This document shows positions 15,605 through 41,127 of a stretch of DNA of 64,000 nt, piece by piece. The translations under genes were made by a program, and so were the position numbers. This DNA is from Candidatus Fimenecus sp. (GTDB taxonomy: Bacteria > Bacillota > Clostridia > Oscillospirales > Acutalibacteraceae), in NCBI GenBank assembly GCA_045613585.1, contig JAZLBG010000107.1:10008-74007 (forward strand), in the 5' to 3' direction. Below the pieces are notes generated by a model. That model had not been told where the DNA came from, did no database searches, and saw only the letters and a list, made by a program, of their open reading frames with translations. The first letter of the stretch is position 1. Every line of letters begins with the position of its first letter.

Positions 15605-15610
15605 TTACTA

Positions 15611-16856: not shown

Positions 16857-16931
16857 AAATGACACTTTTTTATTTTATATATAAATTTACCGTCTTTGAA
16901 TACTTATATACTTTTCATTTCATAGTTTCAA

Positions 16932-17003: not shown

Positions 17004-17759
17004 ATGAACAAAAAACTCAAAATTCTGATTTCAATTATATTGGTAGTTATACTTATATCAGGAGGTTATGTAGGCAATATGTTTGGTGTGTTCAATCGTG
17101 GCAACTATGGTGAGTATTCTCTCAAAAATACCGATACTGTAGAGAATAGCCCAATCAATGGTAAAACCGTCATATTCCTTGGTAGCTCCGTCACTTATGG
17201 CTATGGCTCAATGGGTGTGAGCTTTGCAGATTATCTCGAAAAAACTGACGGAATCCACGCTGTAAAAGAGGCTGTGTCAGGTACAACTCTTGTTGATGTG
17301 AAAGACAATTCTTATGTGTCCCGAATGAAGACAATCGGCAAAGAAATCAAAGCCGATGCAGTTGTATGCCAACTTTCAACCAACGATGCAACCAAAGAAA
17401 TGCCATTTGGAGAAATCAGCGACAGCTACGATATAAACGATTTCGATACCCAGACCATCGCAGGTGCGATTGAGTACATAATCGCATACGCGAAAGATAC
17501 TTGGAATTGCCCCGTGGTGTTCTATACCCAAGCCAAATACGATAGCGACCACTACGCAAAAATGGTAGATTTGCTCCTCGAAATCCAAGACAAATGGCAA
17601 ATCACAATAATAGACTTCTGGAACAATGAAGAAATAAATAGCATCACTGACACCCAACGCAAACTCTACCTCATCGACCACATCCACCCAACCAAAGCAG
17701 GGTATCGCGACTGGTGGCTCCCCACATTCCAACAAACCTTCTATGAAGCAATTGAATAA
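17004..17759 (+). CDS. SGNH/GDSL-family hydrolase with an N-terminal membrane anchor
   Basis: FLGSSVTYG (block I, GDS-like), STNDA, and DHIHPT (block V, DxxH). Visibly higher GC than neighbouring genes. Confidence 0.75.
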   Translation: MNKKLKILISIILVVILISGGYVGNMFGVFNRGNYGEYSLKNTDTVENSPINGKTVIFLGSSVTYGYGSMGVSFADYLEKTDGIHAVKEAVSGTTLVDVKDNSYVSRMKTIGKEIKADAVVCQLSTNDATKEMPFGEISDSYDINDFDTQTIAGAIEYIIAYAKDTWNCPVVFYTQAKYDSDHYAKMVDLLLEIQDKWQITIIDFWNNEEINSITDTQRKLYLIDHIHPTKAGYRDWWLPTFQQTFYEAIE

Positions 17760-17817
17760 ATTGATAAATAAAACACCTGTGAGATGAACATCACCGGTGT
17801 TTTATGTTGCTTCAAAT

Positions 17818-19293
17818 TTAATTTTTTTCAGTATTTTCAGAATCTATAGAATAATCATTTTCTATAACATCTTGAATATAATTAGCAGCAAGTGAATTTA
17901 ATTTTGGATAGTCTAATTTGGGAATATCATATTTTAACATAATACTTTGTGAGAAGTTAGGATAAGATAGTTTTTTGTTTATAAAATCTAAGTGGCTTTG
18001 AACTGTATTAATATATGAAGTGTGCTCTTTTACTAAAGATGTTGCTAAATTCATTTTTTCAAATAATTCTTGCTTTTTTCTTGAATTTTCTACAATCGTC
18101 GCATTTGTTGCCACATTTCCTAATGCGTATATTGCTGTACTCTTTTTAATTGTTTGAGAAAGTGCAGTAAGCGCAGGAGATATTATGGTGGCTGCTTTTT
18201 GTGCCATTTCAGCAATCGATTTTGAAAAATCGGCAAAGCCAGCCAAAACACCCTTGACTGCTTCGGATAAAGCTTTTGCGTTTTTTTCTGCGAAATCTTT
18301 TTCTTCGGTAATTTTAATAGCCTTGATAATGGCTGAATTCAAATGATTGACAAGTTTGTTGCATTCATTATATTCTGATTTATAAAAAAATTTAAAGTGA
18401 GCAACACTGTTTCTATACAAACGAATTTGTTCAATTAAATCTTTTATATTGGGAATATCTATTTTATTACTAAAAAATCGTTCCCAATCGCTTTTTGGAA
18501 TGAATTTTGAAAAAGCCGTTCTTAACTTTTCATCAGATAATTCGGAAAGGTCTTTATGTTCACTTAAAAACTTACTCTTATCATTTTCATCAGCACTTGT
18601 CCAGTTTGAAGTAAAAAGGAGTTTTTGAATATCGTTATATTCAAAAGAATAAAAGAATCTTTGCAATCGCTCAATTTCTTCTGCTTCTTTTTTTGTATTT
18701 GCATTATAATAAGTTTTTATATTATCTTTTTCCTCTTTGTTACTATCAATATTTATAACACCCTTAATTTTACCTTGCAATTCAGAATCAATTGTAATTT
18801 TATAATAGTCTCTTCCAAAATTTACAATATAGATATTGAAAAGTAGTTTTCTTAAATTTCTTTCTAATGTATTAAGTTTCGGGTAAATCTTATTGCAATA
18901 GTATTCCGATATAGCATCGTAGGAGATAATATCAATATATCTTTCACGAACACCAGAGTTAAGGAGCGTATATTGGATATATTCTAAGCATTTAATAAGT
19001 TGGGCTTTAGTTTTCCCATTAACTATAATATCTAGATATTTAGTATCAATAACTTCAGTTATTATAAATTCAACTTTACATACAATATTGCTTTGATATA
19101 TATCAGCAGTATACTTTTTCTTATAAAAATTGTTATTGGTATTTGCTTTAACAATGGTAGGGAACGATGCTTTAATATAACTATATAGATTTTTCCCGGT
19201 AGGCAAGACAATTGTTCCGTTAGCTGGATTGTTATTTGTCTCTTCTTTCCTATATGGATTTTTTAAGAATATGTAACTACTCTGTAATTTCAA
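17818..19293 (-). CDS. HEPN-like (Rx4H) protein, 491 aa
   Basis: IRLYRNSVAHFKF contains R-x4-H in a helical context. TTG start after an AAGGAG RBS. Confidence 0.55.
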   Translation of the reverse strand: MKLQSSYIFLKNPYRKEETNNNPANGTIVLPTGKNLYSYIKASFPTIVKANTNNNFYKKKYTADIYQSNIVCKVEFIITEVIDTKYLDIIVNGKTKAQLIKCLEYIQYTLLNSGVRERYIDIISYDAISEYYCNKIYPKLNTLERNLRKLLFNIYIVNFGRDYYKITIDSELQGKIKGVINIDSNKEEKDNIKTYYNANTKKEAEEIERLQRFFYSFEYNDIQKLLFTSNWTSADENDKSKFLSEHKDLSELSDEKLRTAFSKFIPKSDWERFFSNKIDIPNIKDLIEQIRLYRNSVAHFKFFYKSEYNECNKLVNHLNSAIIKAIKITEEKDFAEKNAKALSEAVKGVLAGFADFSKSIAEMAQKAATIISPALTALSQTIKKSTAIYALGNVATNATIVENSRKKQELFEKMNLATSLVKEHTSYINTVQSHLDFINKKLSYPNFSQSIMLKYDIPKLDYPKLNSLAANYIQDVIENDYSIDSENTEKN

Positions 19294-19326
19294 TTTCTAA
19301 TCTCCTTAAATTAAATAATTGTTCAT

Positions 19327-19362
19327 AATATTAATCGTTGTTTGAGTAGGTTTTGTGGCAAA
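19327..19362 (-). promoter_or_regulatory. Shared island promoter/operator, copy 5 (one mismatch: TGCCACA)
   Basis: On the - strand: tttgccacaaa (19362-19352), then cgat (19337-19334) with 16-nt spacing. 41 nt to the start at 19293. Confidence 0.55.
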
Positions 19363-19369
19363 ATCAAAA

Positions 19370-19900
19370 TTACAATCTATTTTCGTAAGCATCACAAATC
19401 TCTTCAATTGAATCTACAGTGTGACCGCAATTTCTACGATATGCTATATGTAATCTTGTAGCTTGGATAGCTTTCTTTAATCCGTTGCTACCATATTCGT
19501 CAAAAATTGTATCATAATACTTTTTCATTGCTTTAGCACTTATTGCACGTTTATAAATTGTACCTTCTAACATTCCTTGTACAGCATACAAATACATTAC
19601 CGCAGAGTTTCTGTTCATTCCTGTGGAATCGGCAATGTCATCAGCCAATTCCTGAACGCTTTCACCACAAACAACTTGCTTTCCGGATTTGTAGCAAATA
19701 TCAATCATTTCATCTGTCATTTTTTTGTAAGGAACTGTTGGTTCCGTTTGTGTGTTGTAGCTATCTTCTTCATTACTTGTTTCATCATTGTAAGTTTGAA
19801 TGTTGATAGTGCGAATTTGAGCTTGTTTCAACTCTGCTACTTCATCTTCTAATTTTTTGATTCGGGATAAGAGTTCTAAAATAATGGTTTCGTACTGCAT
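19370..19900 (-). CDS. Hypothetical protein (176 aa) with an N-terminal coiled coil
   Basis: ATG 19900 follows a GAAAGGATG-type RBS. No recognisable motif. Confidence 0.55.
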   Translation of the reverse strand: MQYETIILELLSRIKKLEDEVAELKQAQIRTINIQTYNDETSNEEDSYNTQTEPTVPYKKMTDEMIDICYKSGKQVVCGESVQELADDIADSTGMNRNSAVMYLYAVQGMLEGTIYKRAISAKAMKKYYDTIFDEYGSNGLKKAIQATRLHIAYRRNCGHTVDSIEEICDAYENRL

Positions 19901-19933
19901 AATTTACATCCTTTCTAAATACACTTTTTTGAT

Positions 19934-20029
19934 TAGAAATATTTCTATTTCATCTGTCAATGCTTATTATATACAATTCTACAATGAAAGTCAATAGAAA
20001 ATTATAAAAACGTTATAGAAAAATTTCTA
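19934..20029. promoter_or_regulatory. Two TAGAAA-NN-TTTCTA palindromic operators in a divergent intergenic region
   Basis: tagaaatatttcta at 19934-19947 (perfect 14-bp palindrome) and tagaaaaatttcta at 20016-20029. Extra half-sites at 19995 and 20035. Confidence 0.5.
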
Positions 20030-20130
20030 ATGAATTTCTATAAGACATAATTGAAAAACGTTTAATCAATCGATAGTGAAAAAATCAAAAGTAATGTCCA
20101 TTAAAATGTACTTATTGATACTCTCATTCA

Positions 20131-20159
20131 TTGACACAATGTACCCATAGTGTTAAAAT
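20131..20159 (+). promoter_or_regulatory. Canonical sigma-A promoter of the macro-domain operon
   Basis: TTGACA (20131-20136), 17 nt, TAAAAT (20154-20159). Confidence 0.6.
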
Positions 20160-20188
20160 TTAGTTAGTACAATTATAGGAGGGGCGTT

Positions 20189-21268
20189 ATGCCACTTAAG
20201 ATTATTCGACAAGACATAACCAAAATTGAATGTGATGCTATTGTAAATCCGTCCAACCGTCATTTGTACCCAGGTGGGGGAGCAGACCTTTCAATTCACG
20301 AGGCAGCGGGTCCCGAGTTGCTCGCATATTGTGAAAAACTTGGTGGATGTGAGGTTGGCAAGGCTAAAATCACACCTGCATTCAAATTACCTTGCAAGTA
20401 TGTTATCCATACTGCAGGGCCTAATTGGCATCGCCTTGAAAATGCCGAAGAAGTGCTTGCATCTTGCTATAAAGAGTGCTTGAATCTTGCCAAAGAGAAC
20501 AATTGTGAAACTGTTGCATTTCCATTGATTGCATCAGGTGCTTACGGATTCCCTAAGCAGTCCGTATTAAAGATTGCAACAAGCGTAATCAGTGATTTCT
20601 TGTTCGAGAATGAAATGCTCGTGTATCTTGTGGTTTTCGATAAGAATGCTTTTGAAATCAGTGAAAAGCTGTTTTGTGATGTTGCATCATATATCGACGA
20701 TAACTATGTTGAGCAGAATGCCGAGCATCAGATTGTAGAGGGTAGATATAGCAATTATCCTATGCAGTCATTACGCAGAGAAGAACTCGAAGAGCGTCGT
20801 GAAAGAGTCCTTGAAGAACGAGCAGCAAAGCAAATGATTTGCGAATGCGAGTCAGTTTGTCTTAATATGGAAGAACAGGATGAATTCATTAAATCTGACG
20901 ATATTGACGATTGGCTCAAACGAATGGACAAGGGCTTTGCGGATACACTTTTCTACTATATCGATAAGAAAGAGATTACAGATGTTGAGGCATACAAACG
21001 CTCAAATGTAAGCAAAAAGACCTTCTCAAAAATCAAGTGTAATCCTGATTACAAGCCAAGCAAATTGACTGCAGTGTCCTTCGCAATCGGGCTCAAGCTC
21101 AACCTTGACGAAACAAATCACTTACTCAAAACAGCAGGATTTGCCCTTTCAGAATGTAGCAGATTCGATGTAATCATCCAGTATTTCATCGAAACAGGGG
21201 AATACAAAAACATCTTTGATGTAAACGCAGTATTATACAAATTCGACCAACAGTTGTTAGGGGTGTAG
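20189..21268 (+). CDS. MacroD-type macro domain protein with a C-terminal HTH-like domain
   Basis: DAIVNPSN..L.PGGGADLSIHEAAG, YVIHTAGP and AFPLIASGAYGFP are macro-domain hallmarks. The C-terminus has an XRE-like segment (EAYKRSNVSKKTFSKIK). Confidence 0.85.
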   Translation: MPLKIIRQDITKIECDAIVNPSNRHLYPGGGADLSIHEAAGPELLAYCEKLGGCEVGKAKITPAFKLPCKYVIHTAGPNWHRLENAEEVLASCYKECLNLAKENNCETVAFPLIASGAYGFPKQSVLKIATSVISDFLFENEMLVYLVVFDKNAFEISEKLFCDVASYIDDNYVEQNAEHQIVEGRYSNYPMQSLRREELEERRERVLEERAAKQMICECESVCLNMEEQDEFIKSDDIDDWLKRMDKGFADTLFYYIDKKEITDVEAYKRSNVSKKTFSKIKCNPDYKPSKLTAVSFAIGLKLNLDETNHLLKTAGFALSECSRFDVIIQYFIETGEYKNIFDVNAVLYKFDQQLLGV

Positions 21269-21278
21269 GAGGATATTT

Positions 21279-21746
21279 ATGGAAAAAATATATAATATTG
21301 GTATTGGTAATAGTGGTGAATATTTTGTAGCTGCAGAGCTTGAACGCAGAGGCTTTACAGCAGCAGTTCCTATGTCTAATACAAAAGATTTTGATATATT
21401 AGCTATAAGCCGAGAAACAAATAGACAAGTGGCTTTACAAGTTAAAACAAGTCGTGGAAAATTTAAATCTTGGATTTTAGGCAAGAAAAATGAAACTCTT
21501 GAAGATGACAACATTTATTATGTTTTGATTGCATTGAACGAACTTGATACACCTGATTATTATATTATTGAAAGTAAGTATATTGCAGAAAGTCTTTCAA
21601 AGGGATACCAATTGTGGCTTAACGAAGAAGGGAAAAATCACAAAGACACATCTATGAGAAAATTCACTTTTGATGTTCAAGGCGTAGATAATATTAGGGG
21701 ATTAAAATCAGAAGATTTCAAATCTAAATGGGATAAGTTGAAATAA
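21279..21746 (+). CDS. Small PD-(D/E)XK-like nuclease-fold protein
   Basis: GNSGEYFVAAELERRGF...DFDILA...ALQVKTS pattern (D ... Q/E-x-K). Confidence 0.5.
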   Translation: MEKIYNIGIGNSGEYFVAAELERRGFTAAVPMSNTKDFDILAISRETNRQVALQVKTSRGKFKSWILGKKNETLEDDNIYYVLIALNELDTPDYYIIESKYIAESLSKGYQLWLNEEGKNHKDTSMRKFTFDVQGVDNIRGLKSEDFKSKWDKLK

Positions 21747-21807
21747 AAGTTTTTCATAAAAAGTAGGGGACGATGCCCACATCGTTCCGTAAAAAAGGAG
21801 AATTAGT

Positions 21808-22305
21808 ATGAGCATTTCTTTTAGACATTCTGCTGGGTTTGGCAAAAGAATGGAATATAAATTGATTGGCGATATGCTGATGGAAGGTTTGGATTGCTAT
21901 ACACCACTAGTAGATGACCACGGTGTAGATTGTGTAGTAAAAAGAAACGATGGTACATTTATAGAAATACAAATAAAAGCAAGGTCTAAAGATGTCACCG
22001 AAGGCGATGCTGCATTATTTTCTGCAATAGACCATCAATTAACTGAAAATTTTTATTTTGTTTTTTATTCCGAACGATTAGATATGATGTGGATACTGTC
22101 TTCTGAGGAGTTTTTAGCAGAGTGTGTTACAAACAAGAATGGTAAGAATGTAGGTAAACACAGCATTTGGTTTAATGGTAATAGAAAGAATCCTAAAACA
22201 GGAGTTAAGGAAGAATACTGTAAGCCACAGTTCAAAAAATATATATGCAAAGATTTTAGTAGATTTGTAAAAAAAAGTCTCCCACCAAGAGACCATTTTA
22301 AGTAA
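21808..22305 (+). CDS. Small PD-(D/E)XK-like nuclease-fold protein, distant paralogue of the preceding gene
   Basis: EYKLIGDMLMEGL...DDHGVDCVV...FIEIQIKARS (D ... E-x-K). Confidence 0.5.
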   Translation: MSISFRHSAGFGKRMEYKLIGDMLMEGLDCYTPLVDDHGVDCVVKRNDGTFIEIQIKARSKDVTEGDAALFSAIDHQLTENFYFVFYSERLDMMWILSSEEFLAECVTNKNGKNVGKHSIWFNGNRKNPKTGVKEEYCKPQFKKYICKDFSRFVKKSLPPRDHFK

Positions 22306-22317
22306 ATAACTCGTTAT

Positions 22318-22372
22318 AATGTGATTGTAAGGTCAAGGAAAACCTTGAAGAATACAATCACATTATTTTTTT
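22318..22372 (+). terminator. Long hairpin terminator
   Basis: Perfect 12-bp outer stem aatgtgattgta/tacaatcacatt with an inner stem tcaagg/ccttga, then ttttttt. Confidence 0.7.
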
Positions 22373-22385
22373 GGAGGAATTTACA

Positions 22386-23036
22386 ATGAAGAAAAATTTA
22401 ACAGAACTCGTATTTATCTTAGACCGTAGTGGCTCTATGTCAGGTCTTGAAAGAGACACAATCGGTGGATTTAATTCGATGATTGAGAAACAAAGAAAAC
22501 AAGAGGGCGAATGCATTGTTTCAACTGTCCTTTTTGATGATGAATGTCAGGTAATCCACGATAGAGTTAGCATTGAAAACATCAAGCCAATGACAGAAGA
22601 TGATTATTATGTGCAGGGTTGCACAGCGCTTATTGATGCTATCGGCGGAGCAATCCACCATATCGGAAATGTGCATAAATATGCTCGTCCTGAAGATGTG
22701 CCAGAAAATACAGTTTTCATCATCACAACTGATGGTCAGGAGAATTCAAGCCATCGTTATTCATCAAGCAGAGTTAAACATATGATTGAACGCCAAAAAG
22801 CAAAATTTGGATGGGAATTCTTGTTCATCGGTGCGAATATTGATGCAGTCGAAACAGCAAAACGATATGGTATCGAGCAAGACCGAGCAGTTAATTACCA
22901 CGCCGATGCACAAGGCACAAGCATCGTCTTTGAATCAGTGTCAAAAGCAGTGTGCAATGTCCGTGCAAATAAATGTATGGCAGAAAACTGGTCTGAAGAC
23001 ATCGACAACGACTTCAAAAATCGTGGGAAGAAATAA
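22386..23036 (+). CDS. von Willebrand factor type A (vWA) domain protein
   Basis: MIDAS DRSGSMS, plus TALIDAIG and ITTDGQENSS. ATG 22386 follows a GGAGGA RBS. Confidence 0.8.
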   Translation: MKKNLTELVFILDRSGSMSGLERDTIGGFNSMIEKQRKQEGECIVSTVLFDDECQVIHDRVSIENIKPMTEDDYYVQGCTALIDAIGGAIHHIGNVHKYARPEDVPENTVFIITTDGQENSSHRYSSSRVKHMIERQKAKFGWEFLFIGANIDAVETAKRYGIEQDRAVNYHADAQGTSIVFESVSKAVCNVRANKCMAENWSEDIDNDFKNRGKK

Positions 23037-23149
23037 AACAAAAATTCTTGGAGCAATCCAATGATTTTACTATTGTTGTTCTATATATTCTTGTATGTGT
23101 TTGCTTTTATAGGTTCTATTTGGCAAAATCTGGGTGTTATATATCAGTT

Positions 23150-23185
23150 TTTGTCACAAATTATCATTAAATTTCGATATAGTAT
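23150..23185 (+). promoter_or_regulatory. Shared island promoter/operator, copy 2, upstream of the dGTPase-RT operon
   Basis: tttgtcacaaa at 23150-23160 and cgat at 23175-23178, 16-nt spacing. 42 nt to ATG 23220. Confidence 0.6.
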
Positions 23186-23219
23186 TTAATAGGAAAGTAA
23201 AAAGATGGAGGAACTTATT

Positions 23220-24455
23220 ATGGCAAAACCAAAATTTTCAAGTTGTGCGGCTACAAGTAAAAATCCGAATTGGGAAAAATTAATAGAAAGACCTGGGGAA
23301 CTGTATTCACGAGAAGATGAAATACGTAGTCCTTTTGCAAGAGATTATACACGAATTCTCCATTGTATGGCATATAGACGACTCAAGCATAAAACTCAAG
23401 TATTCTTCAACATTGACAATGACCACATTTGCACACGAATGGAACATGTTAGTCATGTGGAATCAGTAAGTACAACAATAGCAAAGTATTTAGGATTAAA
23501 TGAAGAATTGACCAAAGCAATTGCGATGGGACACGATTTGGGCCATGCTCCTTTTGGTCATGAAGGAGAAAGAATATTAAGAAACCTTTCTAAAAAGCAT
23601 TTAAATACAGATTTTTGGCACGAGCAAAACGGGTTGCATTTTGTTGATGAAATAGAGCTGCTTGAAGATAACTATAAACACTATAAAAATCTTAATTTAA
23701 CTTATGCGGTAAGAGATGGAATAATTTCACATTGCGGAGAGATTGACCAAAACGGTATCATTCCTAGAGAAATTTCAATTGATATAAATGCTTTCGATGA
23801 AGCTGGTAAATATCAGGCGGTTACTTGGGAAGGTTGCATAGTAAAACTTGCAGATAAAATTGCATATGTTGGTAGAGATATTGAAGATGCAATTAATTTG
23901 GGACTTCTAGACCAACCTGCTAAAAACAAATTACTTAAAATGGCTCAGGCAAACGATGAAAGTGTAATGAATACAACTGTAATAATGCATAATATGATTA
24001 TTGATATTTGCAAAAATAGTTCTCCTGATAAAGGTATTTGTATGAGCCAAGAGTTTAATGAGCAATTAAATGAAATAAAAATGTTTAATTATGAATATAT
24101 TTATGGCCATGAAAGATTAGAACCATTTAAAAAATATTCAGAGTTGATTATCACTCAAATATTTAATTCATTATTATGCCTTTATGATAAAAAACATACT
24201 TGGGGAAAACTTAGCGAAAGAAAGAAATATACACCAATTTTGATTGATTCATTTGAAAAATGGTTAGCACGCTATTGCGAATCAGATATTGTTCCATCAG
24301 GAGAGTTACAAGAACTTTCTTTGAATTGTGAAAATATAAAAATTTACAAAAAACTTGGAAGTAAAAAGTTGTATGTTCAAGCAATTATTGATTATATTTC
24401 GGGAATGACAGATAGATTTGCTATTAAAGTATTTAATGAGTTACTAGAGTATTAA
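23220..24455 (+). CDS. dGTPase-like HD-domain dNTP triphosphohydrolase (short form)
   Basis: SPFARDYTRILH..AYRRLKHKTQVF, RMEHVSHV, GHDLGHAPFGHEGE and a C-terminal SGMTDRFA. ATG 23220 follows a GGAGGA RBS. Confidence 0.85.
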   Translation: MAKPKFSSCAATSKNPNWEKLIERPGELYSREDEIRSPFARDYTRILHCMAYRRLKHKTQVFFNIDNDHICTRMEHVSHVESVSTTIAKYLGLNEELTKAIAMGHDLGHAPFGHEGERILRNLSKKHLNTDFWHEQNGLHFVDEIELLEDNYKHYKNLNLTYAVRDGIISHCGEIDQNGIIPREISIDINAFDEAGKYQAVTWEGCIVKLADKIAYVGRDIEDAINLGLLDQPAKNKLLKMAQANDESVMNTTVIMHNMIIDICKNSSPDKGICMSQEFNEQLNEIKMFNYEYIYGHERLEPFKKYSELIITQIFNSLLCLYDKKHTWGKLSERKKYTPILIDSFEKWLARYCESDIVPSGELQELSLNCENIKIYKKLGSKKLYVQAIIDYISGMTDRFAIKVFNELLEY

Positions 24456-24467
24456 TGGAGAGTTGAT

Positions 24468-26060
24468 ATGGGCATAAAAAAACTTGATAAAAAGAACTTC
24501 ATTTTTCAAATTTCACAATATGGTTTTTTTACAGAACAATTTCCCGAATGTTTTAATAGTGAAAGCTTTGCAAGAGCATTAGACGACTTGATTTCACTAG
24601 TAGCAAGTTCAAAAGGGCAAGCGAAAAAAGGAAATAGGAATACAACATCACCAACAACATTATCTACATATAAAAACGATATATCTAGAAGAGTGCTGTC
24701 AGTGCCAAATCCCGAGGCCTTTTTGAGATTAGCAAAATTTATGCAAGAACATTGGAATGAAATCAACGAATATGCTTATAGTTCAAACTCTTTGTCCCCA
24801 ATTACATTTGTTAGAGTTTATGCACAAGGTGAAGCTGAGGAGTTACTTAATAGTGAATCACTTAGAGAACGCTTTAAAATTAGAAGTGATTTTGTTGTTA
24901 GTATCAAAAATTGTATTCGTGCATCTCTTGGGTATAAGTATAGATTGAGTGTAGATATTTCTAATTGTTATAACTCGCTATATACACATTCTGTTACATG
25001 GGCTATTTGCGGAAAAGATAAGGCAAAGGAATATTTAAGAACCAAATCTCCAGCTGAAATTCAAAGAGATTATGAAATAGCAGATTGTATAGATGCTTTT
25101 ACAAGATTTCAAAAAAACAATGAAACTAATGGTATAATTGTGGGCCCGTATACTTCAAGGATTGTATCAGAAATAGTTTTAGCTCGAATAGATAAAGAAC
25201 TGAAACAAAAAGGGTTACACTTCAAACGTTATGTTGATGATTATAAAATGTATTTTAGAACTGAGTCACAAGCTCAAGAAAGCTTACCGATTATAGAGAA
25301 GGTATTAAACGAATATAATTTATCGCTAAATACCTCGAAAACAGTAATACAAAAATACCCTTATGAAATTATTTTGAATCTTAAAGACTCTTTTGAAAAA
25401 GCTTTTATTGAGGAGGGCGTGTTCGGTGTTTTAAATATGGCTGCGACACTGTTTTCTTCCGGTGAAAAGGGTGCATATAAATATGCTTTAAAATATATCA
25501 AAGATATGACCTTAACTGGTGAAGATATCTATTTGATTATCCCAACATTGATTAACATTATGTTAATTGACCCCAGATATGGTAAATATGTAACGCAGTA
25601 TTTGAAAAAGAATTTATCTTACAGAGAAAAAGAAAAACTGACAAATGTTTTCAATAATGAATTGACAAGTAGCATTGATGGCCAGTTGCAGCAGGAAACA
25701 CTTTTATTTATTCAGCTAATTAAAGATTTGAATTTAAAAATTCAAGGTAGTAATGTTGTTAAAATATTGAAAAGTGATAATGATTTTGCCATTATAATAG
25801 CCCTTGATTTGTGGAAAAATAGTAAAGAATTAGTTATTAGAACAAAGACTGAAGCGCGAGAGATAAATAAAGCTATTGATTGGTTATTGTTAAAATTAAA
25901 TGGTGAAAAATTATCTGGTTCTAGATGGTTGCTATTATATGAAATGAGTGTAAATAAGCTAGTTAGTTCTAAAAAAATGCCAACTATTGAAATGGATGAT
26001 TTCTTCAGTAAAATGTTTGATTTAAAAGTAAGTTTTTATAATTCAAACAAAAAGAATTAA
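24468..26060 (+). CDS. Reverse transcriptase (UG/Abi-like, non-retron) with a ~250-aa helical C-terminal extension
   Basis: RT motifs in order: RVLSVPNPEAF, VDISNCYNSLYTHS (A), GIIVGPYTSRIVSEIVL (B), KRYVDDYKMY (C, YVDD), LSLNTSKT. A GGAG RBS sits in the 12-nt gap after the HD gene. Confidence 0.8.
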   Translation: MGIKKLDKKNFIFQISQYGFFTEQFPECFNSESFARALDDLISLVASSKGQAKKGNRNTTSPTTLSTYKNDISRRVLSVPNPEAFLRLAKFMQEHWNEINEYAYSSNSLSPITFVRVYAQGEAEELLNSESLRERFKIRSDFVVSIKNCIRASLGYKYRLSVDISNCYNSLYTHSVTWAICGKDKAKEYLRTKSPAEIQRDYEIADCIDAFTRFQKNNETNGIIVGPYTSRIVSEIVLARIDKELKQKGLHFKRYVDDYKMYFRTESQAQESLPIIEKVLNEYNLSLNTSKTVIQKYPYEIILNLKDSFEKAFIEEGVFGVLNMAATLFSSGEKGAYKYALKYIKDMTLTGEDIYLIIPTLINIMLIDPRYGKYVTQYLKKNLSYREKEKLTNVFNNELTSSIDGQLQQETLLFIQLIKDLNLKIQGSNVVKILKSDNDFAIIIALDLWKNSKELVIRTKTEAREINKAIDWLLLKLNGEKLSGSRWLLLYEMSVNKLVSSKKMPTIEMDDFFSKMFDLKVSFYNSNKKN

Positions 26061-26080
26061 TGTTTTTATAGTTATAAGTA

Positions 26081-26126
26081 AAAAGCTAACAATACCTATG
26101 GTTATAATAGAGTGTTGTTAGCTTTT
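26081..26126. terminator. Bidirectional terminator
   Basis: 12-bp stem aaaagctaacaa/ttgttagctttt. Confidence 0.6.
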
Positions 26127-26153
26127 GTAGTGTATATTATTTTAACAGGACGA

Positions 26154-27032
26154 TTATCGCTCTGTTGGAAATATTAAATCTGGTGGATAATGAATACTTT
26201 TAACTTTTCTGATTTTTTTCATATCATATACAGCTGTATTAGGAAGATTCAAAGGGACTGGACCTGAAACGATATAATGTTTGTATGGAGAAAACCAAAT
26301 AACGTAATCTGCTTTAATTTCTTTTAAAACGTTAATAAATTCTTCATCAAAAAAATGTTTATGTATTTCAGCTCTATATGGTGCACCTGTAATAATCTCA
26401 GATGGTAGTTCCTCTGTATTGTTTGCTTGTGCGTACGCACAAGATTCATCGATAATTAAAAACACGCATTTATGTTTTGGGTGATTCTTTTTATATAGTG
26501 GAATTTGGGAATTGTGCTTTTCCAAAACTCTTTTGAAGCTAGATATATAAAATTTGTAGTTGTGGTCTTCTTCTGTAGGTAAATTAGAATGCGAAATTAC
26601 TATGACCTTATTACCATTAACGCCATCCTCAATTCCTTTAGACTTTAATTCAGAATATATTTTGCTTTCTGCCACATTTGTAGCGTTATATAACTTGCCG
26701 CTTTTTAATTTTTTAGTATGGTCATCTACTCGCATTACTTCCATCATGAGTTTATATTTATCGCTATAGAAATCAGGTGGTGGGTCAGATTTTTTGCTGT
26801 TATCCACCCAGTTTTTCCAATGACAACTTTTTAGCACTTTATTAACAATAAAAATAGATTTTATGCTATTAAAAATGATTCCGTGGCATGTGGTTTGAAA
26901 GTACTCAATTATATTTGATTCCTTATCAAAAAAATTCACACTATCACCTCTTTTGTGATTATTATAACATCTCATTTTCGAATAATCAATTTTATTAAGT
27001 TCACTTAGTCCATAAAAATGTACTGAATTCAA
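26154..27032 (-). CDS. Hypothetical protein, possibly a restriction endonuclease partner; start uncertain
   Basis: Divergent from the C-protein/methyltransferase operon. PPDFYSD...LMMEVMRVDD is only loosely PD-ExK-like. No clear RBS at TTG 27032 or at ATG 26975. Confidence 0.3.
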   Translation of the reverse strand: MNSVHFYGLSELNKIDYSKMRCYNNHKRGDSVNFFDKESNIIEYFQTTCHGIIFNSIKSIFIVNKVLKSCHWKNWVDNSKKSDPPPDFYSDKYKLMMEVMRVDDHTKKLKSGKLYNATNVAESKIYSELKSKGIEDGVNGNKVIVISHSNLPTEEDHNYKFYISSFKRVLEKHNSQIPLYKKNHPKHKCVFLIIDESCAYAQANNTEELPSEIITGAPYRAEIHKHFFDEEFINVLKEIKADYVIWFSPYKHYIVSGPVPLNLPNTAVYDMKKIRKVKSIHYPPDLIFPTER

Positions 27033-34411: not shown

Positions 34412-34861
34412 ATGAAAATTATAATTGATGCTGATGCGTGTCCCGTTGTGGATATTACTGTCAATGTGGCAAAAGAGCGTGGACTTGAGTGTATCATTGT
34501 TTGCGACAATACCCACACCATTGAAAGGGATGGCGCTACAACTATAGTTGTTGATAAGGGTGCTGATTCTGCCGATTGTCGTATTGCTAATATCACCGAA
34601 AAGGGTGATGTGGTTGTTACGCAGGATTACGGACTTGCAGCTCTCGTGCTTGGCAAGGGCGGTAAGGCACTTAATCAGAATGGACTCATTTACACCGATA
34701 GCAATATAGAAAATCTCCTTTTCACCCGTTTTATAGGCAAAAAGGAGCGTATGGCAGGTAACAGGACAAAGGGTCCTAAAAAGAGAACATCACAAAACAA
34801 TGCAGATTTTTTAAAAGCATTGTTAATATGCCTTGACCATTGTGATGGTATATTGATTTGA
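34412..34861 (+). CDS. YaiI/YqxD (DUF188, UPF0178) family protein with a chimeric C-terminus
   Basis: MKIIIDADACPV... N-terminus is typical of DUF188. The last 9 codons (DHCDGILI*) copy the end of def. Confidence 0.7.
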   Translation: MKIIIDADACPVVDITVNVAKERGLECIIVCDNTHTIERDGATTIVVDKGADSADCRIANITEKGDVVVTQDYGLAALVLGKGGKALNQNGLIYTDSNIENLLFTRFIGKKERMAGNRTKGPKKRTSQNNADFLKALLICLDHCDGILI

Positions 34862-34901
34862 TAGATGTTTGTTTGTGTTCGAAAAAATTAAGGAGTGAAA
34901 G

Positions 34902-36605
34902 ATGATGGATAATCACAACAATCCTGCGGTTGTTATAAAATCAATTACATTTAATGATGGTAGTGAAATTGAATTTAATAGTGACGACATAGTATTATTG
35001 GTTGGAGCCAATAATGTCGGTAAAAGCCGTACTTTGAAAGATTTACAAGCAGATTTAATTGATAATGAAAATTCAAGAGTATTAATAAAAAAAGTTGACT
35101 ATCATACCAGTAATTTTGCTACAGAACCAATAAAGAATTTCTTTGAAAGAAATATTCGTAAAAATATTCATGGTGACTATGTCGTTCCTGTGAATGATAA
35201 TTGCACCCATCAATTCAGTGAATTTGATTTTGAGAATGTTTTAGACGGTGATAAGCGCTTCTACAAAGTTTTGTATTCATTTTTGTCAACAGAAAGTCGA
35301 TTGAATATAACAAAACCAATTAGCTTTAATTATGGTGTTGATAAAACATGTTCAAACATATTAAATAAACTAGAAGAGCACCAAGAAATAATAGAGACAC
35401 TAAACGAAATATTGTCATCAGCATTTGGGAAGGCTATTGATGTGTATGAACGTTCTGATGATGATGTCATTGTAAAAGAATATAAAATTGGCGATGGCAA
35501 ATTAATTACTGATGCAATTAATTCAAACAGACGAGAGGGGAAAAGAATACTGAAAGAACTGGATAGCCTACATCACCAAGGTGATGGTATAAGAAGTGCA
35601 GTTGCTATCTTAGCTTCTCTTATTGTTAACGAACATTCATTGCTTTTGATTGACGAACCGGAAACTTTTTTACATCCACCTCAAGCGAAACTGATTGGAA
35701 AAAACATTGTGCAATTATCAGAGAATAAACAATGTTTTATTGCTACACACAATATTGATTTCATTAAAGGTGTTGTAGAAGCAAATTCTTCTAGAGTAAA
35801 AATAATAAAGATTAATAGATATGAAAATGAAAATACTTTTAATTTAATTAAAAACAACAGCATTATTGAAATTGCAAACGATAAGAACTTAAAATATACA
35901 AACATTCTGGATGGTTTATTTTATAATCGTTTGGTGTTGTGTGAAAATGAAAGTGATTGCAAATTTTATGCCTCATTATTGGAAAATATGGATTTATCCA
36001 AGTATCAAAGTACGCTATTTTGTGCAGTTGGAGGTAAAGACCAGTTCAAAAAAGTAATACCTTTGCTAAGAGAACTGCGTATAGATTATTTGATTATTGC
36101 TGATATAGACTTAATCGATAATAAAGAGAATTTAAAACAATTAATGAATTCCATAGTAACAGATGGATATGAGCAAATACGTAAAAAGCATAATGATTTT
36201 TTGGAAAAATTTGAAGAAGGAACAAATTCTCAAGTTAAAATTCAATGTGATATACAAAAAGAAATTAACGAGGCTTTCACAGATGAAAGATATATCTCAC
36301 CGGAAACTGTTGATAAGATAAAATCGATATTAAAGAATATTAGTTCTTTAAAATTATTGAAAAGGGGCGGAAAAAACATTTTGCCTCAAGGAGATTGTAC
36401 AGCACTATTTAATGAGATTAATAATTACCTACATGAGCATAATGTTTTTATTGTAGAATGTGGAGAAATTGAACGGTTTGTGCCAAACGTAGGTGGACAT
36501 GGAAATAATTGGTTAGAGAAGGTATTTGAAAAGTATAGGGATATTGACGATAATGTTTACAATGACGCAAAACAGTTTGTTAAGGTAATCTTTAAAATTG
36601 ATTGA
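34902..36605 (+). CDS. OLD-family / PARIS-like fused ABC-ATPase plus TOPRIM protein
   Basis: Walker A GANNVGKS, Walker B LLLIDEPETFLHP, H-loop ATHN. TOPRIM-like CENESD ... IIADIDL. Confidence 0.75.
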   Translation: MMDNHNNPAVVIKSITFNDGSEIEFNSDDIVLLVGANNVGKSRTLKDLQADLIDNENSRVLIKKVDYHTSNFATEPIKNFFERNIRKNIHGDYVVPVNDNCTHQFSEFDFENVLDGDKRFYKVLYSFLSTESRLNITKPISFNYGVDKTCSNILNKLEEHQEIIETLNEILSSAFGKAIDVYERSDDDVIVKEYKIGDGKLITDAINSNRREGKRILKELDSLHHQGDGIRSAVAILASLIVNEHSLLLIDEPETFLHPPQAKLIGKNIVQLSENKQCFIATHNIDFIKGVVEANSSRVKIIKINRYENENTFNLIKNNSIIEIANDKNLKYTNILDGLFYNRLVLCENESDCKFYASLLENMDLSKYQSTLFCAVGGKDQFKKVIPLLRELRIDYLIIADIDLIDNKENLKQLMNSIVTDGYEQIRKKHNDFLEKFEEGTNSQVKIQCDIQKEINEAFTDERYISPETVDKIKSILKNISSLKLLKRGGKNILPQGDCTALFNEINNYLHEHNVFIVECGEIERFVPNVGGHGNNWLEKVFEKYRDIDDNVYNDAKQFVKVIFKID

Positions 36606-36615
36606 ATCAACAAGT

Positions 36616-36659
36616 AAAAACACCTATGAGGTTATAAAATTAACTTCATAGGTGTTTTT
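36616..36659 (+). terminator. Rho-independent terminator
   Basis: Stem aaaaacacctatga/tcataggtgttttt. Confidence 0.7.
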
Positions 36660-36830
36660 ATATTGCGCTTGATGCTTTTGACTTGTAGGATTTATGCTCC
36701 CATAATATGAATTTTCTAAAGTTATTATAAGAACTCACTTTCAGGGGATGTAATATGTTTTCCTAAAAAAGAAAAGTTAGTTGTTTTCATTTATGTTTAT
36801 AAGAAAAGAATATATAGAATTTTGCAGATT

Positions 36831-36866
36831 TTTGTCACAAAATATTACTTTTAAACGATGTAAATA
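36831..36866 (+). promoter_or_regulatory. Shared island promoter/operator, copy 3
   Basis: tttgtcacaaa at 36831-36841 and cgat at 36856-36859, 16-nt spacing. 44 nt to ATG 36903. Confidence 0.6.
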
Positions 36867-36902
36867 ATGAGACTAATTGTAAAATATTTTGGGGGGATTA
36901 AT

Positions 36903-37859
36903 ATGAACAATCTTAGCTTTACAGCGTGTAGTTTTCATTTTAAAGAAACAAATAGTAAGGGAGATTATCGTATATTTGCTTTAAACAGTAAATATAAATT
37001 TAAAAAAATATCAAATACGATAGAAGCCGATTCTTTTGATATTTTAAAAGGGTTCCTAGAGACTAGAAGCGGCTACATAAATGATGAGAATGAGGAAAAA
37101 CTCTTTTCTTGTAGTTTTGATTCAATGGGTGAAAATGAATACTTTAGATTTCTTATGGGGCGAATTAAATGCGGTTCATATGGATATTTATCGGATGTTG
37201 TTGATATTGATAGCATGAAAACTATCACAAAAATAAAGCCGAATCAAGCACCAATAAAAGATTTTTTGTTTTTTATTGCTATTCCAAAAGATAATAAACG
37301 AGTTACTGTGGAGAAAGGATTACTGTTTTTTCAAAACTATGGACAATTTGGAATTAAAACAATAACACTTAAATATTTACAAGTATATCTCAATCAATTT
37401 CATATAACAATAAAATGTGGTAATATAGCACCTAAACTATTTGTGGACAAGGTATTAACAAAAGAAGCACTTAATAAAATAATATTAATTAAGAACAACA
37501 AATCTCAAGATTTAGCGGATAAAAATTATTTTGGATTTGGACAAGAAACGCGTATTTTGTCACAATTAAAGTTGAATACAAATATATTTGATAAAATTAA
37601 AGGTTATGTGTCCCAAAATCAAACTTTATTCGAACTTGAGGGGCAAGAATATGATGCATTGAAAGTGCAAGTAAGAATAGGAGAACGAGAACGAGTTATT
37701 AATTTAAACAATATTGAAAATTTAAGTATAATAGAATCATTGCCAAATGATTTGATGGATTCGTCTGGTGAAATAGATATAAATAGGGCAATTAATATTT
37801 TCACTGCTAACGCTAAAGATTATTTGTCAGAAATGGTTCTACAAATTACTCAAGATTAA
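36903..37859 (+). CDS. Hypothetical protein (318 aa)
   Basis: ATG 36903 follows a GGGGGGA RBS. No recognisable motif. Confidence 0.6.
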   Translation: MNNLSFTACSFHFKETNSKGDYRIFALNSKYKFKKISNTIEADSFDILKGFLETRSGYINDENEEKLFSCSFDSMGENEYFRFLMGRIKCGSYGYLSDVVDIDSMKTITKIKPNQAPIKDFLFFIAIPKDNKRVTVEKGLLFFQNYGQFGIKTITLKYLQVYLNQFHITIKCGNIAPKLFVDKVLTKEALNKIILIKNNKSQDLADKNYFGFGQETRILSQLKLNTNIFDKIKGYVSQNQTLFELEGQEYDALKVQVRIGERERVINLNNIENLSIIESLPNDLMDSSGEIDINRAINIFTANAKDYLSEMVLQITQD

Positions 37860-37873
37860 AAAGGGTGGTAACG

Positions 37874-38452
37874 ATGAGTGAATTTTTTACCAATCCTGCA
37901 TTATGGATTGGCATAGGTGTTTTTTTTATTATAATATATGCTAATATGAAAACAGATAACTATATTGATATTAGAAGCATTATTAAAAATCATTATTCAA
38001 TATTTGATGGTTCAATAATTCAAATACTCTTTTTTACAATTATTCCTTTATTTTTTGCTATAGGGTTTACCCTAGCACAAACAGTGACAAAAGATATTTA
38101 TGATTGTTTAAATGTCATATTTTCTATTTTTGTTGCTATGTTTTTTTCTATTTTATCAATATTACTTTCAATTTTATCAAAAGATGGAAAAGACGAAGAA
38201 AAAAAGATTAAACAAAATAAGGAATATCTCAAATTAATTGAACAAAGTAATGATACGGTTATTTTCGAAATATTACTTTCAATTGTTTTGTTGTTTATTA
38301 TTTTAATATATAGTTTACTCCCTGAAAATACGGATATCTTTGTTAAAGTTGTTTTTAGTGTAATAATATATTATTTAACTGCTTCAGTACTGTTAAACAT
38401 TTTTATTTTGATTAAGCGATTAAAAGCAATTTTTGATAATCTTAATCAGTAA
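37874..38452 (+). CDS. Small multi-pass membrane protein (192 aa, 4-5 predicted TM helices)
   Basis: Hydrophobic stretches (WIGIGVFFIIIYA, ILFFTIIPLFFAIGFTLA, IFSIFVAMFFSILSILLSIL, ILLSIVLLFIILIYSLL, VVFSVIIYYLTASVLLNIFILI). 14-nt gap after the preceding gene, with an RBS. Confidence 0.65.
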   Translation: MSEFFTNPALWIGIGVFFIIIYANMKTDNYIDIRSIIKNHYSIFDGSIIQILFFTIIPLFFAIGFTLAQTVTKDIYDCLNVIFSIFVAMFFSILSILLSILSKDGKDEEKKIKQNKEYLKLIEQSNDTVIFEILLSIVLLFIILIYSLLPENTDIFVKVVFSVIIYYLTASVLLNIFILIKRLKAIFDNLNQ

Positions 38453-38506
38453 TACTATATGAAACGTATATTATATAAGAATACAAATTCAATAAAAATT
38501 GTTATT

Positions 38507-38533
38507 CAACCCACATTTGTGGGTTGCTTTTTT
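38507..38533 (+). terminator. Rho-independent terminator
   Basis: Stem caacccac/gtgggttg, then cttttttg. Confidence 0.7.
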
Positions 38534-38644
38534 GTTTGTGGTACTTGTTCAACTAACACACTTATTGTAAATAAATACGATAGGAGGATAGAGGTCAAAG
38601 TTAATATTTAATAAAACCTTATTATTTACAAAGGAGTGTTTTAG

Positions 38645-38959
38645 TTGATAAATACAGAAGATTTGAAGCGGATAATGAACGCCAACGAGAATTTATATTA
38701 TGGTCGTAATTATATTAATATCCACGACCATTCGCATAAGTTTGCGGTGATTGATGATGCTTACAATGTCCCGATTATTTTTGTTCACTGTTACAACTAC
38801 ACAGAAGATGAGGCAGAAAAGCTGAGTCGTCTTTTTGATAGTTTCTTCTATTATAAGTTGTATAAATTTCACATGGAAAACAAAATTGTTCTTATGTTTA
38901 TCAACACGGATAAAATGGTAGCGTATATTAACAGAGCAGAGGAGAGTAGTGCTAAATAA
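38645..38959 (+). CDS. Hypothetical small protein (104 aa)
   Basis: TTG start 7 nt after an AAAGGAG RBS. Confidence 0.45.
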   Translation: MINTEDLKRIMNANENLYYGRNYINIHDHSHKFAVIDDAYNVPIIFVHCYNYTEDEAEKLSRLFDSFFYYKLYKFHMENKIVLMFINTDKMVAYINRAEESSAK

Positions 38960-38999
38960 GAAAACAAAGAAAACGCCACTCATTTTTGAGTGGCGTTTT

Positions 39000-39191
39000 T
39001 TAATCCATAAATACACACATATAACTACAGACTGCATTGGAGTCGGGCCAGATTAATCCAATGTAGTTATCTTCTATATTTACAAAACAATCATAATTTT
39101 TATTTTTTCGTAAGATTTTCAAAACTTCGTTGAAATCATTGGGGTTTAGTTCGTGCTCAATACCATTAACGGTGATAAAAATTTTATTCAC
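39000..39191 (-). CDS. Hypothetical small protein (63 aa)
   Basis: GTG start after an AGGAGTGA RBS. Confidence 0.4.
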   Translation of the reverse strand: MNKIFITVNGIEHELNPNDFNEVLKILRKNKNYDCFVNIEDNYIGLIWPDSNAVCSYMCVFMD

Positions 39192-39665
39192 ATCATCACT
39201 CCTTTATATAAGAAGTATGAAATAATAACACATCTTCAAAAGAAATGTTATCTGATAAGGATAATGTTTCTTTTTTCGTTTGTGTGTTGATTATAAAAAT
39301 CATAATAATATTGTAATCAACACACGAGAGGAGATGGCGTTTTAAATGAAGCGGTATTAATTAAATAACCTTGTTTAGGTTGTTGTTTTCTTACCTTACC
39401 TTTCTTTTTTTTACACCGAGGGGAGAGGCGTTGTATTTTTTACAACGTCTCTTTTCTTTTTATAAAATTTTTTAATTTTTCACGTTTTTTCTATATTTGA
39501 AAAAAGCACGCATAAGTAATCTTTCATATTAATTGTAAATAATTACAAAAGGAGTGTTACTTATGCGTTATGAATAACATAATTATTAATTTTTTATATT
39601 TGAAAAATTAATTTCAAAAAATAATTCATATTTAAAACAAATAATTATTTAGGAGTGAATTCTTT

Positions 39666-39884
39666 ATGAAAATTAGTAATAACTATTCATTTGAAAATCT
39701 TGAAAACGAGCTTCTTACAGCTAAAGAGTTAAAACAGGTGATGCGTTGTGGCATCAATAGGGCATATGACCTTTTAAAATCAACAGCTTTCCCTTCAACA
39801 AAAATAGGAGGCCGTTACTACGTAACGACCTCGGCATTAAAAGAATGGCTTGTTATGTATGAGAACAAAGTGTTTTATATTTAA
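39666..39884 (+). CDS. xis: Excisionase-type HTH protein (Xis, HTH_17-like)
   Basis: LTAKELKQVMRCGINRAYDLLKS..FPSTKIGGRYYVTTSALKEWL. Ends overlapping the 3' end of the integrase gene (convergent). Confidence 0.7.
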   Translation: MKISNNYSFENLENELLTAKELKQVMRCGINRAYDLLKSTAFPSTKIGGRYYVTTSALKEWLVMYENKVFYI

Positions 39885-41041
39885 TCCAACAATTTAATTG
39901 TATTCACTTTATCTTCATCTTTAGTGTGTACATATTTATTAATCGTAACACTTACATCCGCATGACCAAGCAGTTTGGAAACAATAGCAATATTCGCATC
40001 TTTTTTGTTGATGAGATTTGTAGCAAATGAATGACGCATTGAGTGAGGACCGTAAATTTTATTTACGGTCTTTCCTTTTTCGTCGACTGCCTTATCCATT
40101 TCCGCTGCATAAAGAATATTTTCAAACATTCTTGCAAAGTTTCTTACAGTGATAGGCGTGCCTTCTGATGTGGAAGAAACATATTCAAAATCTCCGTTGA
40201 GATTATAAAGTCGTTCAAGTGCTTCTTTACACTTTTTACTCATAGGGATTGTTCTTATACTTGATTTAGTTTTTGGTTTGTTTATAACATCCACGTAATT
40301 AGGGTCCGTGGGTGCTTTTTTATTGCGATTTTTTACATGTTGTCTTGTTTTTGTTATAGAAATTGTGTTGTTTTTGAAGTCAATATCATCCCATGTCAGA
40401 GCTAGAAACTCACCTGAACGCATACCAGTTTGACCAAGCACAATGACAGCATCGCCAAGTCGATATACATTTTCTTTTTTACCTGATACGGTGTGCATTT
40501 TGGTAGCTGCTTCATAAATTTTGTTTAATTCTTTTTCAGTGTAAAAAACGATATCGTCAGAGTCTTTTGATGAGGCACTTTCAGGGATTTTAACATCTTC
40601 AAACGGATTGTCTTCATATTTTTTGAGAACTTTGTGGAACCTTAAGGCAGCTTTTAAAGCTTCTTTTGCTTTCTTAATTGTCGACTTGCTAAAACCATCA
40701 TTTGAAAGGTCATTTAACCATTTTTGAACTTTTGTTGATGTTAAAGTTATAACTTGAACTTTACCAATATATGGAATAATTTGATGATTAACTATCTGTT
40801 CTTTGCGGTCAAATGTTGATGCTTTGTTAGCAATACCTTTTTGAATCTCTAACCAATCAGTGACAAGTGTTTCAATATTAGTTTTGCCATAGTCTTCAAC
40901 TAATTTCCGTTGTTTTACATTGTTTTTAAGTTCGGTATAATATTGTTCAGCAGCTTTTCGTGTTGCTTTGACATATTTTTTACCATTAAGATTAAAATAA
41001 TAATTACCATCTTTTCTTTGATGTACGCGTGGGTTAGACAT
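39881..41041 (-). CDS. int: Tyrosine recombinase / integrase
   Basis: TGMRSGE (Arg), HSMRHSFAT (HxxR), LLGHADVSVTINKYVH (His and Tyr). ATG 41041 follows a GGAGG RBS; the track start at 41116 is an upstream extension. Confidence 0.9.
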   Translation of the reverse strand: MSNPRVHQRKDGNYYFNLNGKKYVKATRKAAEQYYTELKNNVKQRKLVEDYGKTNIETLVTDWLEIQKGIANKASTFDRKEQIVNHQIIPYIGKVQVITLTSTKVQKWLNDLSNDGFSKSTIKKAKEALKAALRFHKVLKKYEDNPFEDVKIPESASSKDSDDIVFYTEKELNKIYEAATKMHTVSGKKENVYRLGDAVIVLGQTGMRSGEFLALTWDDIDFKNNTISITKTRQHVKNRNKKAPTDPNYVDVINKPKTKSSIRTIPMSKKCKEALERLYNLNGDFEYVSSTSEGTPITVRNFARMFENILYAAEMDKAVDEKGKTVNKIYGPHSMRHSFATNLINKKDANIAIVSKLLGHADVSVTINKYVHTKDEDKVNTIKLLD

Positions 41042-41106
41042 AATAAAACCTCCTATCAATTTTACTATACCACATAAACTCATATAAATCAATGCTTTTA
41101 AGCAAA

Positions 41107-41127
41107 AATGTACCAAAAATGTACCAA
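41107..41127 (+). promoter_or_regulatory. Tandem AATGTACCAA x2, a candidate integrase arm-type site on the right arm
   Basis: AATGTACCAA at 41107 and 41118, the same decamer pair as at 6506/6518. Confidence 0.4.

Follow-up and report, generated by a model that had tools for sequence, protein, structure and literature searches.

What does a pair of small adjoining genes do when neither matches a catalogued protein family and both lie close to the integrase of an island that holds many defence genes? The pair considered here, genes A and B, occupies positions 36903-38452 of a 64,000-nt stretch of Candidatus Fimenecus sp. DNA (Bacillota, Clostridia; GenBank assembly GCA_045613585.1, contig JAZLBG010000107.1, forward strand, 10,008 to 74,007). 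We call this whole stretch the window, and all positions refer to it unless a locus is named. Gene A (36903-37859, + strand) encodes a 318-aa cytoplasmic protein and gene B (37874-38452, + strand) a 192-aa integral membrane protein; together they form a module of 1.55 kb. The sequence-only reading of the window described two tightly linked genes, driven by the third copy of a shared promoter, closed by a terminator and placed between an OLD/PARIS-like gene and an int/xis module. It recognised no motif in either protein and proposed, from the layout, a sensor paired with a small membrane-disrupting effector, as found in abortive-infection systems; it also pointed to structure searches, to co-occurrence of the two genes and to defence-gene neighbourhoods as ways to judge the idea. 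We consider it likely that A and B by themselves make up a Rex-type module of two genes for phage exclusion (abortive infection), closest to the pairs of phages Sbash and CarolAnn, with that of lambda more distant.

The A family and its predicted RexA-like fold

Both proteins were scanned against Pfam, NCBIfam, PHROGs and PADLOC (PADLOC-DB 2.0 at E≤1), and all four libraries are empty for A and for B, which bears out the absence of a recognisable motif. The catalogued systems with a membrane component, such as Kiwa and the lactococcal Abi systems, are covered by this negative, as no PADLOC-DB 2.0 model matches either protein at that threshold. A word-indexed protein search finds 34 relatives of A, and a profile search of 1.84 billion cluster representatives gives 1260 clusters at 50% identity with E≤1e-3 (682 at E≤1e-10). 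From phage collections, tblastn of A returns no match in 50,697 phage genomes, and IMG/VR contributes only two loci with A relatives. A resemblance to ParD, found when profile A1 was compared with PDB sequences, is a chance match (E 0.8) and was discarded. When 115 members of the A family are compared with Pfam, all of them yield noise only.

A relationship emerges once the A family is compared with the RexA-like protein gp30 of phage Sbash, whose genome accession we took from PMC4939774. Aligned by hhalign, the profile of the 115 A-family sequences (A4) and that of 19 sequences of the gp30 family (A5) match over 296 columns with a probability of 97.83 and an E-value of 7.5e-13. Even the single sequences of A and gp30 can be compared directly (E 7.3e-4), with the PF..IVIPKD motif visible; across the two families the common motifs are SG.YG..S.I and PF..(I/V)VIPKD. 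Relatives of gp30 carry the NCBI name 'RexA family abortive infection protein'. Judged by these alignments, A and the RexA-like gp30 family of Sbash are remotely homologous and do not form one close family.

The predicted structure of A leads to the same group of proteins. A confident AlphaFold2 model built from 33 sequences (pLDDT 87.2, pTM 0.83) was searched against the PDB with Foldseek, and lambda RexA is the sole significant match: 8twq_B is found with E 1.9e-4 and probability 1.00, 8twq_A with E 1.1e-3 and probability 0.99, and nothing else appears at about E≤0.001. The order of elements in the model, an N-terminal β-sheet domain, a central α/β domain and a C-terminal helix, agrees with the published RexA topology. 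A is thus modelled with the two-domain RexA fold, which combines a split globular β-sheet domain with an α/β dimerisation domain. Sixth in the PDB list for the A model is human CENP-N (7pkn_N), which we take to be the orthologue of yeast CHL4. CHL4 has been assigned to the RexA/RdgC fold group (PMC11077077).

The membrane partner and the conservation of the pair

The hydropathy profile of B contains five hydrophobic segments. Its AlphaFold2 model, built from 40 sequences (pLDDT 85.6, pTM 0.79), consists of five long helices and a short amphipathic helix at residues 33-44, and the charged loop KDGKDEEKKIKQNKE falls at residues 103-117; the sequence-only description of a mostly transmembrane protein with a short charged loop is therefore upheld, with five predicted membrane helices. 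Residues N29, K181 and R182 are invariant. By the positive-inside rule, B probably has its N-terminus outside and its C-terminus inside, and the same rule predicts three segments on the inner face: K.NNF.DIR.I..HF, the K/E-rich central loop and the C-terminal IKRLK..FDN tail.

When the viral structures of BFVD are searched with the B model, first place goes to a 165-aa Sbash protein (probability 1.00; TM-score 0.57/0.65, rmsd 2.9 Å over 141 columns). This is the length of gp31: among Sbash genes 1-77, the range of the comparison (genes 78-89 lie outside it), gene 31 is the sole 165-aa CDS. Sbash gp31 is the RexB-like effector of the gp30/gp31 pair. A single uncultured phage, ctylc9, supplies both the sixth BFVD match for B and the second BFVD match for A. 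A distant member of the family, L057, has a 160-aa four-helix partner which lacks the first helix of B and retains the juxtamembrane and KR motifs. The conserved core is therefore four-helical, and both of its termini would lie inside, which is the arrangement of RexB and gp31.

We fetched 38 loci with A relatives from genomes and metagenomes of Clostridia, Lachnospiraceae, Oscillospiraceae, Bacilli and other Bacillota. A is followed immediately by a B homologue, after a gap of -8 to +54 nt, in 36 of these loci; the remaining two are a contig end and a gene fragment. The downstream partners are mostly 177-196 aa long, with four to five hydrophobic segments and phmmer E-values of 1e-15 to 1e-32 to B. 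Over the 33 intact loci, pairwise identities of A and of B are strongly correlated (Mantel r 0.94, with 0 of 2000 permutations as high), so the two genes diverge together and without partner swaps. Distant members, L057 and L058, keep an adjoining membrane partner with the same motifs. The co-occurrence that a functional pair calls for is thus found.

Decayed copies occur in four of the 38 loci (L015, L036, L037 and L038). Among the types of decay are an A gene with stops or frameshifts, a B gene truncated to about 110 aa and loci in which a fragment only is left; in L038 A is broken by a frameshift and B intact, and in L015 and L037 both are lost.

The operon and its genomic setting

A and B form a single transcription unit with a promoter of its own. 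In three rumen or gut metatranscriptome assemblies, RNA contigs cover A and B alone in the region: 36881-38197 and 38235-38385 in X2, 36896-38325 in X5, and 36894-37447 in X10. The transcribed unit on the + strand, made of bovine and gut contigs, extends over 36881..38385, with the A-B junction spanned by single contigs. There is no real coverage of 34500-36880, which contains the upstream OLD gene, of 38502-39545 or of 11000-27000. The contigs align from their own first base, 12-27 nt past the box described below with its -10-like element; these 5' ends fit a transcription start near 36875 and argue against ATG 36867 as the start of gene A. That start codon, which would give a 330-aa protein, is unlikely also because homologues begin with MxNLS and a GGGGGG ribosome-binding site precedes 36903; the RNA contigs, which begin at 36881-36896, lie downstream of it. 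The 14-nt gap between A and B, as given in the sequence-only reading, contains the ribosome-binding site AAAGGGTGG.

The shared promoter element invoked in that reading is a real one. The palindromic core TTTGTSACAAA is present four times in the window (at 11673, 16846, 23150 and 36831) against 0.16 expected, none of 100 shuffles reaches four copies, and each copy stands upstream of an operon start. When the four are aligned, a conserved CGAT(A/G)TA follows each core after 14 nt. In front of A, the box (36827..36869, + strand) reads TTTTTGTCACAAA, 14 nt, CGATGTAAATAAT; it includes a -10-like TAAATA at 36861-36866, and its palindrome overlaps the -35 region. A classical sigma-70 promoter can be rejected, since TTGTCA and the best -10-like hexamer are separated by 22 nt, too large a distance; an operator or activator site that overlaps the -35 region is a possible alternative. 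The sister islands L055 and L052 share the box and leader of A-B and differ in sequence further upstream.

In the window as a whole, the box TTTTTGTCACAAA-N14-CGAT(A/G)TA is located at 11669-11700, 16830-16860 (- strand), 23146-23180 and 36827-36869. The operons that bear it begin with an HD-domain hydrolase gene (11800), a 368-aa gene of unknown function (16785, reverse strand), an HD-hydrolase/reverse-transcriptase pair (23205) and the Rex-like pair, respectively; in the RNA runs examined, only the last has RNA contigs. The box, common to A-B and three other island operons, may mark a common regulator of several defence operons.

The operon is closed by an intrinsic terminator (38507..38536, + strand) with a stem of 8 bp, including 5 G-C pairs, a 4-nt loop and then CTTTTTTGTT. 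It was correctly placed in the sequence-only reading and is the single terminator-like site in 36400-38800 (38507-38526, followed by the T-run). The upstream boundary of the module is an inverted repeat (36615..36660, + strand), directly after the stop of the OLD-family gene: its 46 nt are 82.6% identical to their own reverse complement.

The copy in the window lies within a low-GC integrative island, bounded by tRNA-Trp and the integrase and with many defence genes inside; the GC content is 25.9% for A-B, 31.2% for the island and 34.5% for its flanks. Upstream of A is an OLD-family ATPase-TOPRIM gene (34902-36605; Pfam AAA_21 and OLD-like_TOPRIM, PADLOC Old at 2e-22). Downstream, at a distance of 1.2 kb, come an HTH_17 excisionase-like gene (39666-39884) and a tyrosine integrase gene (39881-41116), so that the placement between an OLD-type gene and int/xis stands. 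Two small ORFs separate A-B from xis, at 38645-38959 (+, 104 aa) and 39000-39191 (-, 63 aa). Pfam contains no family for either, and the 104-aa ORF has no match in NCBIfam, PHROGs or PADLOC. ORFs of similar size (109 or 100 aa, and 63 aa) are found at the same position in the sister islands L052 and L055.

Sister islands from pig and other gut samples (L052, L055 and L056) retain def, DUF188, A-B, two small ORFs, xis and int. The slot that separates the DUF188 gene from A-B is where they depart from a backbone otherwise like that of the window: in the window it contains the OLD-family gene at 34902-36605, and in the sisters a gene for a 401-aa AbiH protein (L052:4645-5850, L055:193-1398, L056:538-1743). 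With AbiH in place of OLD, and a conserved A-B box and leader behind differing upstream sequence, A-B is an autonomous cassette beside a variable defence slot. We therefore rejected the OLD gene as a third component, on the model of Gabija, PARIS or class-2 OLD systems. The hairpin and the separate promoter box between OLD and A, the lack of any RNA contig over OLD and the unrelated neighbours at other loci speak against it as well.

Elsewhere, the pair recurs on mobile elements or in the company of defence genes, those of restriction-modification among them. The defence-island placement suggested in the sequence-only reading thus holds as an observed proximity, and the enrichment is a qualitative one. 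Genes that end at most 30 nt before A on the same strand encode a Dcm methylase (L003), an Eco47II endonuclease (L023), a type III Res protein (L024), HsdR (L029-L032 and L035) and a Schlafen-type helicase (L033 and L057). Other neighbours include GmrSD, Vsr and MutH-like genes, Dam methylases, AbiH, Fic-HTH, a putative AbiC, HicAB and serine recombinases. Two loci, L016 (27-4345) and the IMG/VR contig L045 (4135-8877), carry the pair in a siphovirus-type genome, where it separates the large terminase gene from the portal gene, an unusual site for cargo within the head-packaging module.

Two further settings deserve a description of their own. The helicase of L033 (6041-7918) and L057 (2119-3975) is of Schlafen group 3 (PF09848) and lies 25-28 nt upstream of A in members that are far apart in sequence; it is either a recurrent partner or another case of the same defence-island habit. 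In L001 (5093-7980), two unannotated genes of 400 and 291 aa, with no Pfam or PADLOC family, stand directly upstream of the pair, the second ending 14-20 nt before A depending on the start codon. The region resembles a conjugative element, with RadC, DUF932, YqaJ and DUF960.

Proposed function and relation to known Rex systems

The sensor-effector proposal is supported by the homology of A to gp30, the fold match to RexA and the structural match of B to the Sbash protein, and the reading we favour is a Rex-type exclusion module. Sbash gp30 with gp31 and CarolAnn gp44 with gp43 confer defence (PMC6426596), and gp30 and gp44 dimerise and bind DNA like RexA (PMC11077077). By analogy, a defence function is expected of A-B too. 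A would be a dimeric DNA-binding sensor that activates its RexB/gp31-like partner upon infection. Once activated, it would engage the cytoplasmic parts of B, for which the juxtamembrane helix NNFxDIRxIxxHF, the charged central loop and the C-terminal KR motif are the candidates. B would then form a channel or pore that depolarises or permeabilises the membrane, and with the collapse of membrane potential and ATP growth would stop and the phage cycle remain incomplete. Sensing, contact between A and B and channel activity are each modelled on the work on lambda, Sbash, CarolAnn and Pseudomonas putida.

Several observations weigh against this reading. On the side of A, hmmscan at E≤1 finds no match to the Pfam RexA model (PF15969) for A or any of the 115 family members, with lambda RexA matching it at 1e-97 as a positive control. 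By hhalign, profiles A1 and A4 against lambda RexA, and A4 against a 4-sequence RexA profile, stay below 1% probability. The gp30 family itself cannot be bridged to lambda RexA and RexB by sequence either, even with small lambda-clade profiles, so that it is the fold and the literature that carry the link to lambda. Superposed as a whole, A and 8TWQ agree poorly (TM-score 0.34-0.38, rmsd 16.7). Hinge and swivel loops connect the two domains of lambda RexA, whose crystal structure shows a closed state (PMC11077077), so a rigid-body mismatch about the interdomain hinge is a plausible cause. As to B, its Foldseek match to the Sbash protein has a modest E-value (1.3e-2), and convergence can produce such matches between small helical bundles. 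Its profile (A2) has no similarity by hhalign to gp31 or to an 8-sequence gp31 profile from eight loci, nor to RexB or a RexB profile, and Pfam, RexB model included, gives no match; B moreover has five helices, not four. The pair is not adjacent to an immunity repressor. The RNA contigs are unstranded, and a sister island could be their source. Finally, Rex function is assigned to the A-B family by analogy, with DNA binding and the A-B interaction both putative, and one described system has its roles reversed, so the direction from sensor to channel is not guaranteed.

That system is gp30/gp31 of phage Butters, whose cytosolic RexA-like protein acts as the antiphage effector; defence does not require the membrane protein (PMC12894663). 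In the present pair, toxicity would then reside in A as the effector, and B would be a membrane anchor by which A is sequestered and silenced until infection sets it free. The decayed loci fit this weakly, as selection against an uncontrolled A: A is frameshifted beside an intact B in L038, and both genes are lost in L015 and L037. B is, however, conserved no less strictly than A, and the two co-diverge; the invariant N29, K181 and R182 of B, predicted to be cytoplasmic, exceed what a passive anchor needs, and in four of the five described Rex-like systems the membrane protein is the effector (PMC12894663). We therefore give such a reversal a small chance of being right.

The neighbourhoods of the pair invite two other explanations. 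In at least nine loci a co-directional restriction-modification or helicase gene ends no more than 30 nt before A, and RexA-like proteins bind DNA non-specifically (PMC11077077). The module could thus be an accessory or back-up coupled to DNA-targeting defences, mainly restriction-modification, with A reading the state of the DNA as left by active or blocked restriction. The upstream partner nevertheless varies from locus to locus and is OLD or AbiH in the window and the sister islands; A-B has its own promoter and is alone under the RNA contigs; the phage copies between terminase and portal genes have no restriction system nearby; and clustering in defence islands accounts for the adjacency without any coupling. 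The chance of this explanation appears slim. The constant association with mobile elements, here 1.2 kb from xis and int, would also suit a role for the element itself, be it superinfection exclusion at the membrane, the timing of lysis or excision, or a lysogeny switch of the sort that lambda RexA biases independently of RexB (PMC11077077). Most loci, though, have no adjoining repressor, Cro or integrase, and the immediate neighbours are mostly restriction-modification and Abi genes. The elements themselves are unrelated in type (integrative island, prophage structural modules, serine-recombinase elements), which argues for portable cargo and leaves such a role very improbable.

A wider picture can be drawn around the Rex-type module. 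The family, with at least 1260 clusters, would be a large unannotated branch of Rex systems that has moved out of the prophage immunity region, a portable cassette docking preferentially 3' of restriction-modification and other DNA-targeting defence operons. It would serve as a second-line sensor of damage or blocked restriction, answering with membrane collapse and placed under a common island regulator. As a whole, we think this picture unlikely to hold.

The kind of system is known; the A-B family is uncatalogued. Being missed by all four libraries, it is absent from current censuses of bacterial defence in gut and rumen, and adding A and B profiles to defence-finding tools would be an immediate practical gain. 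The module is compact, transcribed in bovine and gut metatranscriptomes and endowed with clear conserved residues for mutation. It is therefore a convenient entry to an old question: how a RexA-type sensor activates its membrane partner.

Among known systems, the Rex-like prophage defences of mycobacteriophage Sbash (gp30/gp31) and Gordonia phage CarolAnn (gp44/gp43) are the closest (PMC6426596, PMC6426606). They share the two-gene layout, in which the gene for a small multi-pass membrane protein directly follows that for the soluble one, and they are likewise mobile-element cargo near an integrase. The gp30 family is homologous to the A family over almost the full length, with about 13% identity in the hhalign alignment; gp30 and A are 372 and 318 aa long. 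In contrast, gp31 and B have no detectable sequence similarity, and B has an extra N-terminal membrane helix. Sbash and CarolAnn infect Actinobacteria, whereas A-B belongs to low-GC Bacillota, and the locus of at least one relative encodes a TonB_C protein as well; unlike the two phage pairs, A-B is often attached to restriction-modification operons.

Lambda RexA/RexB (PF15969, PF15968; PDB 8TWQ), the classic exclusion pair in which a cytoplasmic sensor would abort infection by opening a small membrane protein, has the same gene order and almost the same gap, 15 nt against 14 nt. RexA, the one significant PDB match to the A model, has the same order of secondary structure, and RexB and B are both small helical membrane proteins. 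RexB, however, has four helices in 144 aa and B five in 192 aa; A and B match neither the Pfam models nor the lambda-clade profiles, the global TM-score is as low as stated above, and rexAB lies in the immunity region behind cI, where A-B does not.

RexABpp of P. putida (PP_5643/PP_5644) is the precedent for calling such pairs RexAB-type: it too was found by remote homology and by the RexA fold similarity of its soluble protein, with a membrane partner that likewise has no detectable homology to RexB (PMC12894663). Its function was established afterwards, as overexpression of the A protein causes growth arrest and membrane permeabilisation in a B-dependent manner (PMC12894663). Going by its description, it is set apart from A-B as another sequence family, with a proteobacterial host, a location in a prophage near a CI-like repressor and a four-helix partner. 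None of the five described Rex-like systems comes from Bacillota, and the A-B family is distinguished from them by its host phylum, the extra helix of B, the absence of a link to a repressor and the frequent attachment to restriction-modification genes.

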